Assembly (NCBI RefSeq): GCF_050320075.1
Contig: NZ_CP190025.1
Reading direction: 5' to 3' (one strand)
DNA: 5,772 nucleotides
Origin: Escherichia coli
GTDB taxonomy: Bacteria > Pseudomonadota > Gammaproteobacteria > Enterobacterales > Enterobacteriaceae
Shown one piece after another: positions 4,007 to 4,095 of this stretch (position 1 is its first letter; each line of letters opens with the position of its first letter). The notes under the pieces were generated by a model, which was not told the DNA's origin, did no database searches, and saw only the letters and a program-made list of their open reading frames with translations. A program made the translations under genes and the position numbers.

Positions 4007-4095
4007 GGAGAGGTGGGCGAGTGGTCTAAGTCAGGGCTCTCTTGAGGCCATATGCGACAAGCGTATCGTAGGTTCGAATCCTACCCTCTCCGCCA
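4007..4095 (+). tRNA. Type-II (long variable arm) tRNA with encoded CCA; Ser-like body (acceptor stem GGAGAGG, discriminator G), anticodon in canonical register CUU; isotype undetermined
   Basis: Hand-folded cloverleaf. Acceptor stem 4007..4013 / 4085..4091 (7 bp, perfect). D-stem 4016..4018 / 4030..4032 with an 11-nt D-loop containing GG. Anticodon arm 4034..4050 (4 bp plus a G.A mismatch; loop CTCTTGA with U33). Variable arm stem-loop 4051..4065 (5 bp, 5-nt loop). T-stem 4068..4072 / 4080..4084 with T-loop TTCGAAT. G4092, then CCA 4093..4095. Confidence 0.85.

Follow-up and report, generated by a model that had tools for sequence, protein, structure and literature searches.

The DNA analyzed here, called the window, is a complete ColE1-type plasmid of 5772 bp from Escherichia coli, and the element under study is a gene for a tRNA-like RNA (4007 to 4095, plus strand) that lies beside, and in divergent orientation to, the gene of a 296-residue protein. 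We find that the RNA is built as a serine tRNA, that its anticodon-like arm is not conserved among its relatives, and that most carriers have it close to the gene of this protein. A first-pass annotation, made from the sequence alone, had taken the window for a small ColE1 plasmid, and this is borne out by an Rfam match to RNAI at 4205 to 4310 on the minus strand (66.6 bits) and by the Rop, MobC, and MbeA genes that RefSeq annotates on NZ_CP047007.1 (plasmid p0 of E. coli J-8), which is identical over the tested stretch; PLSDB types such plasmids as mobilizable. The composition profile sets off a cargo island of ~30% G+C (about 1750 to 4100) within a backbone of ~55% G+C. The island holds the tRNA-like gene, the gene for the 296-residue protein (open reading frame 2940 to 3830, minus strand), which has the catalytic fold of class-I aminoacyl-tRNA synthetases and is referred to below as the enzyme, and a gene for a 377-residue polytopic membrane protein, the permease (1795 to 2928, minus strand, with the RefSeq start; WP_072647583.1).

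The ARAGORN call of isotype and anticodon that the first-pass annotation had proposed as a check gave a single tRNA in the window, at 4007 to 4095 on the plus strand, typed as tRNA-Lys with the anticodon ctt at position 35 of the gene (window 4041 to 4043). Rfam model RF00005 aligned to 4007 to 4092 at 46.2 bits (gathering score 29, E=1e-7), the non-standard pairs in this alignment being G13.A22 and G27.A43, and the covariance model built for the family, R1, scored the plasmid RNA at 99.3 bits; RefSeq annotates the same gene. The product is a type-II RNA of 89 nt with the CCA encoded. Read from the sequence, its acceptor stem GGAGAGG/CCUCUCC is paired at 7 of 7 positions, the D stem has 3 bp (GGC/GUC), the T arm GUAGG-UUCGAAU-CCUAC is standard, and the 3' end consists of G73 followed by CCA, so that every position of the acceptor, D, and T stems is paired in a cloverleaf of full length. 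The variable arm (4051 to 4067, plus strand) is 17 nt long with a 5-bp stem, AUGCG/CGUAU, that includes one G-U pair; it is laid out as in the E. coli serW tRNA and is the main serine-identity feature of the RNA. Earlier statements of a near-perfect type-II cloverleaf with a Ser-type acceptor stem, G73, and CCA all hold, by ARAGORN, by Rfam, and by direct reading. The anticodon-like arm (4034 to 4050, plus strand), GGGCU-CUCUUGA-GGCCA, presents U33, C34-U35-U36, and G37 (at 4044) on a weak stem made of three Watson-Crick pairs, U31.G39, and the G27.A43 mismatch. It was described correctly from the outset as four pairs plus a G.A with CUU in register behind U33 and G at position 37.

Among 5426 complete E. 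coli genomes, 20 have this RNA gene, plasmid-borne every time, and it is also found on plasmids of Klebsiella pneumoniae. The E. coli carriers are nearly all plasmids of 5.8 to 8.8 kb, with one record of 17.3 kb that has three copies, and they come from isolates of humans, chickens, mice, mink, a bullfrog, and wastewater. RefSeq applies the label tRNA-Lys in 19 of the 20 E. coli plasmid records, namely those with a match to the full gene.

By every feature but the anticodon, the plasmid RNA is of the serine type. It aligns end to end with the tRNA-Ser(GGA) encoded by serW of E. coli K-12 (89 versus 88 nt) and shares with it the arm layout, the length class, the 7-bp acceptor stem, the 3-bp D stem, the long variable arm, G73, and CCA. 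It also has the complete identity set of seryl-tRNA synthetase (SerRS), that is, the long variable arm, G73, and the acceptor pairs G1-C72, G2-C71, and A3-U70 (PMC9976931). The variable-arm stems of its relatives differ in sequence and remain paired (ACACGA/UCGUGU, GUAUGU/AUGUAC, GUACGU/ACGUAC). Motif scans were run with two patterns of the RNA, one for 26 nt at its 5' end and one for 28 nt at its 3' end, each with a few two-base ambiguity positions. The 5' pattern matched 18 metagenome contigs, 12 of which carry one genuine soil tRNA-Ser(GGA), while the 28-nt pattern, covering the T arm and the 3' strand of the acceptor, matched 23 viral contigs and fell at canonical tRNA-Ser genes (GCU, UGA, CGA) in 22 of them. 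Both ends of the RNA therefore match patterns common to bona fide tRNA-Ser genes, which strengthens the serine identity assigned to it in the first-pass annotation. We had also read the invariance of the acceptor GGAGAGG as recognition specific to the partner enzyme; this idea was dropped because the acceptor and T-arm sequence recurs in 22 ordinary viral tRNA-Ser genes. What is absent is a serine anticodon (NGA or GCU) on a conserved arm of 5 bp and 7 nt; the plasmid RNA has CUU, and its relatives have hairpins of 8 to 13 bp or a 6-nt loop. Bacterial tRNA-Lys has type-I architecture with a short variable loop, the discriminator A73, and A37. The plasmid RNA does show one of the two lysine anticodons (UUU, CUU) behind U33 in a loop of 7 nt (CUCUUGA), and departs from the type-I tRNA-Lys in its 17-nt variable region with a stem, G73, and G37.

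Two other unusual RNAs of serine type were seen. One, in a tRNA array of a phage (L065, 10408 to 10492, minus strand), is a type-II tRNA with the acceptor and T arm of tRNA-Ser and an ARAGORN anticodon of UCU (Arg, AGA), possibly a viral case of a serine-identity tRNA with a non-serine anticodon. The other, from a soil metagenome (L033, 1963 to 2064, minus strand), is tRNA-Ser-like, shares the 26 nt of the 5' end and the acceptor stem with the plasmid RNA, has a very long variable region, and carries at the place of the anticodon arm a stem of 7 bp (CUGGUUU/AAACCAG) closed by a loop of 3 nt; ARAGORN made no call there. We rejected it as an enzyme-linked member, the neighboring open reading frames being unrelated to the enzyme family, and it may mean that other non-decoding derivatives of tRNA-Ser exist.

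To describe the RNA in other carriers, the loci of enzyme homologs, a sample of about 20 independent loci, were searched for tRNAs with ARAGORN, Rfam, and model R1. In most carriers, the enzyme gene has a tRNA-like gene 80 to 300 nt away that shares the acceptor stem, G73, and CCA, has a long variable arm, and is closely similar in its D and T arms. These loci are the three E. coli plasmid alleles, L009 to L011 of Rahnella, L008, L013 (a metagenome-assembled genome (MAG) of Proteobacteria, identical to L036), L016 (the chromosome of Edwardsiella anguillarum), L034, L035, and L046, a 2.1-Mb contig with two tRNA-like copies; in the Lentisphaerae MAG L015, the tRNA-like gene is found 3 kb downstream of the enzyme gene. 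The reciprocal scan of metagenomes with the 5' motif agreed, since all five non-canonical tRNA-like genes that it found adjoin enzyme and permease genes and none of the 12 ordinary tRNA-Ser(GGA) genes does. The genes of this RNA family are always tied to one enzyme gene and not to tRNA operons. With the RNA adjoining enzyme homologs in Rahnella, Edwardsiella, metagenomic Proteobacteria, the Lentisphaerae MAG, and the 2.1-Mb contig, the comparative data favor one of the roles first proposed for it, that of a substrate of a tRNA-dependent enzyme.

Throughout the family the acceptor, D, T, and variable arms are all kept, and the anticodon-like arm alone lacks conservation. In L009 the arm is a perfect 12-bp hairpin, GACAGAGAAAAC-UGUAAG-GUUUUCUCUGUC, and in L008 another, GAUUUAAGAAAC-UAACC-GUUUCUUAAAUC; L016, L013, and L035 have hairpins of 13 positions with mismatches and GAAA, GUAA, or AUAA caps; L015 has an 8-bp stem with a 12-nt loop; and L046 has a 5-bp stem with a 6-nt loop, reported by ARAGORN as 'tRNA-???'. 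A short arm with a 7-nt loop is confined to the plasmid lineage of E. coli and Klebsiella. The six long-arm members vary in sequence almost exclusively inside the arm helix, where 5 of 13 pairs have changed on both sides, and over the whole structure 95.6% of cells are paired versus 40 to 50% when the partner strand is slid by one to three columns. Across the wider family, the D-stem pair 11-24 covaries as well (G-C, G-U, U-A). From the compensatory changes and the 95.6% pairing, we infer that the long-arm helix is kept as a structure and is unable to present an anticodon; as folded, the arms of the relatives would be incapable of decoding. In the MAFFT alignment A3, the C-U-U of the plasmid RNA falls on base-paired nucleotides in the 3' strand of the relatives' hairpin, and the comparison suggests that the arm was shortened by a deletion of ~15 nt in the E. 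coli/Klebsiella lineage.

The partner of this RNA belongs to a small and nameless protein family. A database of 5.8 billion proteins holds 56 homologs of the 296-residue protein, all without protein names, from Pectobacterium, Rahnella, Edwardsiella, Salmonella, alphaproteobacterial and Lentisphaerae MAGs, and Cetobacterium, and a full hidden Markov model search of 1.84 billion representative proteins returned only 57 clusters. The protein matched nothing in Pfam, NCBIfam, or PADLOC and nothing in the PDB by sequence or profile; a PHROGs search gave nothing usable (E 0.016 or worse), and Pfam found no domain in 24 of its distant homologs. AlphaFold2, run on a 32-sequence alignment, produced a confident model with pLDDT 91.1 and pTM 0.90 that has the Rossmann-type catalytic fold of class-I synthetases and is structurally nearest to ArgRS, CysRS, and MshC; the best structural matches are all ATP-dependent ligases. 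The chain is one domain with an N-terminal hairpin and stops 7 residues past the last Rossmann strand, and the resulting absence of an anticodon-binding domain fits an RNA partner whose anticodon arm varies freely. Residues H84, C228, C262, and C294 are invariant even in homologs of ~20% identity and resemble by position the zinc ligands of CysRS and MshC, so they probably form a Cys3-His metal site. Strand 1 is followed by SGGH in the stretch S-G-G-H-T-V-V-N-L-x-D-R-F, which we liken to the CysRS stretch C-G-x-T-V-Y-D-x-x-H-I-G-H, with D-R-F-x in place of HIGH. The only stretch resembling KMSKS is the C-terminal F-F-G-K-S-C-F, slightly like KFGKS, where the lysine position is T, R, or K; residue 291 is Thr in the E. 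coli plasmid copy and its 84% relative, and Lys or Arg in most family members. Compared with CysRS and MshC, the enzyme appears to have D-R-F-x for HIGH and no clear KMSKS, and it lacks an anticodon-binding domain; sequence searches showed no relationship to either.

Between the E. coli alleles, the ratio of nonsynonymous to synonymous divergence (dN/dS) of the enzyme gene is 0.09 to 0.13 at a dS of ~0.18, and the gene is under purifying selection. The three alleles differ at 3 to 5 of the 89 positions of the tRNA and at 15 to 16 of the 176 intergenic positions, and the cloverleaf is intact in each. From this pattern of substitution, the enzyme and RNA genes appear to be in use.

With the ATG at 2928 that RefSeq uses, the permease gene begins 11 nt beyond the stop codon of the enzyme gene; its longest open reading frame starts at 2979 and would overlap the enzyme gene end by 40 nt. 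In both cases the spacing is tight enough for a candidate operon. The protein has no Pfam match; it is distantly like the STP/HAAAP transporters of serine and threonine (TIGR00814 at 83.7 bits, cut-off 525.8), and the copy in VL46 is named 'amino acid permease'. Permease homologs follow the enzyme gene in the Enterobacterales-type loci L008, L009, L034 to L036, and L045. An EamA transporter takes the place of the permease in Cetobacterium and L046, and an SSF transporter lies beside one distant homolog; three unrelated transporter families at the same position argue for small-molecule traffic. Outside E. coli, most loci of close homologs (L003, L004, L006 to L011, and L046) also have a metallo-β-lactamase (MBL)-fold protein of 236 to 280 residues beside the enzyme, which matches only the uncharacterized MBL structures 2p4z and 3h3e and generic MBL models. 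In L021 (3466 to 11002), the distant homolog P0084 (333 residues) stands in a same-strand row of genes for an SSF transporter, the homolog, a 1192-residue and a 211-residue protein, both without a family match, and a seryl-tRNA synthetase. This last neighbor fits a serine connection; no tRNA-like gene was found in the 11 kb examined.

We put at about one half the probability that the plasmid RNA is a tRNA-Ser-derived partner of the 296-residue enzyme, with no dedicated decoding function, and is charged by SerRS so as to serve as a carrier or donor of seryl groups. Host SerRS would serylate the RNA through the long variable arm, the acceptor stem, and G73, with the anticodon ignored. The stripped-down class-I catalytic domain would then bind the aminoacylated CCA end and either transfer the seryl group to a small acceptor or convert it on the tRNA. 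A substrate or the product would be moved across the membrane by the permease, and in most relatives the MBL-fold hydrolase would add a hydrolytic step. The CUU would be a leftover from the shortening of the long hairpin in the E. coli/Klebsiella plasmid lineage. We argue for charging by SerRS because every feature of tRNA-Ser is kept, because the enzyme also occurs at loci without the RNA, because SerRS is encoded near one distant homolog, and because no HIGH motif is evident in the enzyme. The conservation of the variable arm likewise points to SerRS as its reader, since a 296-residue enzyme acting at the CCA end could hardly reach that arm. Somewhat short of even odds, in our estimate, stands the wider proposal of a horizontally mobile module in which hairpin-armed RNAs derived from tRNA-Ser, unusable in translation, act as dedicated scaffold or donor for minimal metalloenzymes of class-I fold, with a permease and usually an MBL hydrolase, in the making or alteration of a serine-derived small molecule on a tRNA.

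Several observations pull the other way. The lack of HIGH and KMSKS was judged by eye from the sequence. The SerRS gene in L021 is an isolated case near a distant homolog and may just as well serve resistance (PMC9032320). Within 5 kb of the enzyme gene, the searches turned up no tRNA-like gene in Pectobacterium parvum, in four alphaproteobacterial MAG loci, on the Cetobacterium plasmids, in Lonsdalea, or beside any of the distant homologs. On L045, a 43-kb plasmid contig with an 84% identical enzyme, the RNA gene has been replaced by unrelated DNA. Because it is missing from many enzyme loci and replaced in L045, the RNA is not obligatory; the enzyme of the RNA-less loci could use a housekeeping tRNA-Ser. 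Finally, the E. coli copy does have a formally canonical loop, with 7 nt, U33, and a purine at 37, and some ribosomal use or translational leakage of this copy is to be allowed for.

Were the plasmid copy a missense or recoding tRNA, it would read AAG and insert serine, or lysine if lysyl-tRNA synthetase, which reads U35 and U36, accepted it through these bases; partial lysylation of the RNA is conceivable. The loop C-U-C-U-U-G-A with its U33 and purine 37 is compatible with this, both gene finders call CUU, and CUU, G37, and A38 are constant in the three E. coli alleles. The Y32-U33-R37 pattern of the loop, however, is expected at random in about 1 of 16 cases, no more than three pairs of the stem are Watson-Crick beside its G.U and G.A, and G37 next to U36 is not what tRNAs reading ANN codons carry. 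Serylation is independent of the anticodon, and anticodon mutants of tRNA-Ser mistranslate (PMC9976931), which would make serine insertion feasible; a multicopy Lys-to-Ser tRNA should nevertheless impose a cost that fits poorly with the recovery of the plasmid from many hosts. We rejected the idea that the RNA supplements AAG decoding for the cargo genes, which have 45 AAA and 5 AAG codons; because of this bias, it is not there to help translate them. Since the homologous arm of the relatives would not be able to decode, CUU looks incidental, and we regard it as such and the tRNA-Lys annotation as wrong in substance. A Lys-to-Ser missense tRNA, raised as an option when the gene was first described, is not supported by relatives whose arms cannot present an anticodon or by cargo genes that hardly use AAG, and we hold it to be improbable.

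Three further explanations leave decoding aside. The 296-residue protein might be a minimal synthetase. It would use ATP to activate an amino acid or a related acid, perhaps a thiol given the probable metal site like that of CysRS and MshC, and perhaps one imported by the permease, and would load it onto the RNA as a dedicated non-translational acceptor. Its best structural matches, all of them ATP-dependent ligases, speak for this. Against it stand the lack of an evident HIGH, a KMSKS-like lysine that is not conserved and is T in the plasmid copy, the many loci with the enzyme and no RNA, the lack on the plasmid of any downstream user of such a charged RNA, and the retention of all tRNA-Ser features including the distant variable arm, which an enzyme working at the acceptor end would not need; we judge a minimal synthetase unlikely, if a serious candidate. 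That the RNA is a decoy, an immunity factor, or a regulator, mimicking tRNA-Ser to titrate a toxin or an inhibitor of SerRS or controlling the divergent operon or ColE1 copy number, we find hard to credit. PADLOC has no match, the STP-like, EamA, and SSF transporters beside the enzyme fit small-molecule metabolism better, and the linkage of RNA and enzyme gene extends to chromosomes and to plasmids other than ColE1, so the RNA is not tied to the ColE1 origin. What such a role has in its favor is that the loci are on mobile elements, that some relatives lie among WYL/WCX regulators, a DEAD helicase, NUDIX proteins, and toxin-antitoxin pairs, that the SerRS gene beside a distant homolog could mark a SerRS-directed compound, and that the tRNA lies just upstream of the RNAI/RNAII region. 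Decay to a tRNA-Ser pseudogene, already considered in the first-pass annotation, or survival as what is left of an integration site that came with the island would agree with the weak anticodon stem, with the loss of the gene in the neighboring L045 lineage, and with a normal tRNA-Ser(UGA) 4 kb away in Edwardsiella. Decay is contradicted by the full-length cloverleaf with wholly paired acceptor, D, and T stems, by allele differences that are few (3 to 5 of 89 nt, at an enzyme-gene dS of ~0.18) and spare the cloverleaf, by the low dN/dS of the partner gene, by compensatory changes in the hairpin and at D-stem pair 11-24, and by conservation of the RNA from Enterobacterales to Lentisphaerae, and we consider it very improbable indeed.

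Dedicated non-translational tRNAs are rare, examples being tRNA-Sec and the cell-wall tRNA-Gly of staphylococci. For the favored reading, a tRNA-Ser-derived partner of the enzyme, the nearest functional parallels are tRNA-Sec, the cyclodipeptide synthases, and the SerRS-dependent steps of valanimycin and albomycin synthesis. It shares its logic with tRNA-Sec and SelA or PSTK/SepSecS, in which a tRNA of serine identity is set apart from elongation and acts as the scaffold for a dedicated enzyme (PMC9976931). The two differ in that the acceptor and T stems of all members of the present family are 7/5, not 8/5, with no acceptor-T branch of 13 bp (8/5) or 12 bp (8/4, 9/3), in that there is no UCA anticodon and no decoding role, and in that the partner here has a class-I synthetase fold, while SelA is a pyridoxal phosphate enzyme and PSTK a kinase. 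Compared with tRNA-Ser itself, the plasmid RNA lacks the serine anticodon, and the arm in its family is usually a long hairpin. GluQRS (YadB), a truncated paralog of GluRS, keeps the ATP motifs and modifies an anticodon base of normal tRNA-Asp, whereas the RNA partner here has no conserved anticodon arm. The cyclodipeptide synthases AlbC and Rv2275 are small single-domain proteins of class-I Rossmann fold that lack the ATP motifs and use aminoacyl-tRNAs, mainly through acceptor-arm contacts (PMC12945691; PMC7672478). The enzyme described here is likewise small, single-domain, and of class-I fold; it gave no match to the cyclodipeptide synthase family, having no Pfam match at all.

Serine is also passed by SerRS machinery to non-ribosomal enzymes in the valanimycin (VlmL/VlmA) and albomycin (AbmK/AbmF) pathways, where a SerRS gene lies inside the cluster (PMC9032320), much as one lies near the distant homolog P0084 in L021. 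The Streptomyces clusters are large, encode unrelated transferases, and have no tRNA gene of their own; the present module has three or four genes on small plasmids or islands of Gram-negative bacteria. Allo-tRNAs and the nev-tRNAs of nematodes combine a long variable arm and serine-type identity with the anticodon of another amino acid (PMC5389517, PMC3333845); both keep a canonical anticodon arm, unlike the RNA family here, and the allo-tRNAs have acceptor/T stems of 8/4 or 9/3 as against 7/5. Among the aminoacyl-tRNA-dependent enzymes covered by a review, namely the GNAT-fold, cyclodipeptide synthase, LanB-like, and aaRS-like (SbzA, AcmF) families, none has this size, a class-I fold of the Cys3-His subtype, or a dedicated tRNA-like gene. 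We found no published description of a tRNA gene on ColE1 plasmids, of this RNA, or of this enzyme family, in a literature search whose coverage was incomplete and which is no proof that none exists; a survey of ColE1 plasmids (PMC8683028) does not mention a tRNA. The system would be of a known kind, a non-ribosomal tRNA-dependent system with a tRNA of its own, and the chance is substantial that its RNA class and its enzyme family are each new.

For annotation, the tRNA-Lys label on ~20 E. coli plasmids and on the Klebsiella plasmids needs correcting, the RNA being of serine type and probably no reader of codons. An RNA family with a replaced arm, together with an enzyme family that matches nothing in Pfam, in NCBIfam, or by sequence in the PDB, would add a new case of tRNA-dependent chemistry outside the ribosome, and the mobile module, if correctly understood, would be a plasmid-borne non-ribosomal counterpart of the selenocysteine pathway. 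With three genes on a 5.8-kb multicopy plasmid of E. coli, the system is small and tractable. If the enzyme and the RNA are orthogonal to translation, the pair would be of interest for genetic-code and tRNA engineering, and a bioactive product, if that is what is made, would explain the persistence of a 'cryptic' ColE1 plasmid in gut E. coli of many hosts.

The surroundings of the enzyme and RNA genes differ among relatives. In L046, two inverted tRNA-like copies (7837 to 7924, plus strand, and 14633 to 14720, minus strand) bracket an island of ~7 kb with the enzyme homolog, EamA, an MBL-fold protein, an Asp/Glu racemase, an MFS transporter, a radical-SAM/SPASM protein, and open reading frames of 43 to 51 residues, which could represent an extended biosynthetic cluster or else a mobile unit with the RNA genes at its ends. 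The distant homologs P0086 and P0088 are found among genes for HTH_AsnC regulators, radical-SAM, and B12-binding proteins, with no tRNA-like gene.

As to expression of the RNA gene, a consensus promoter scan reported no site directly upstream of the tRNA. By reading the sequence, we noted a weak candidate promoter, TTGGAT-17 nt-TATTGT (3971 to 3999, plus strand), which would end 7 nt before position 1 of the tRNA; it is unchanged in the M15 allele, and a similar stretch is kept upstream of the L045 breakpoint. In L045 itself (5860 to 5960, minus-strand reading), the promoter-like stretch is retained and homology ends exactly at the expected tRNA start, as if a rearrangement had recently removed the RNA gene. 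Downstream of the tRNA, the scan listed a terminator-like site, a hairpin with a T-run (4154 to 4176, plus strand) 59 nt past the 3' end, that could terminate transcription of the tRNA. This hairpin borders the ColE1 RNAI/RNAII control region, and the tRNA gene has the same orientation as the replication primer.

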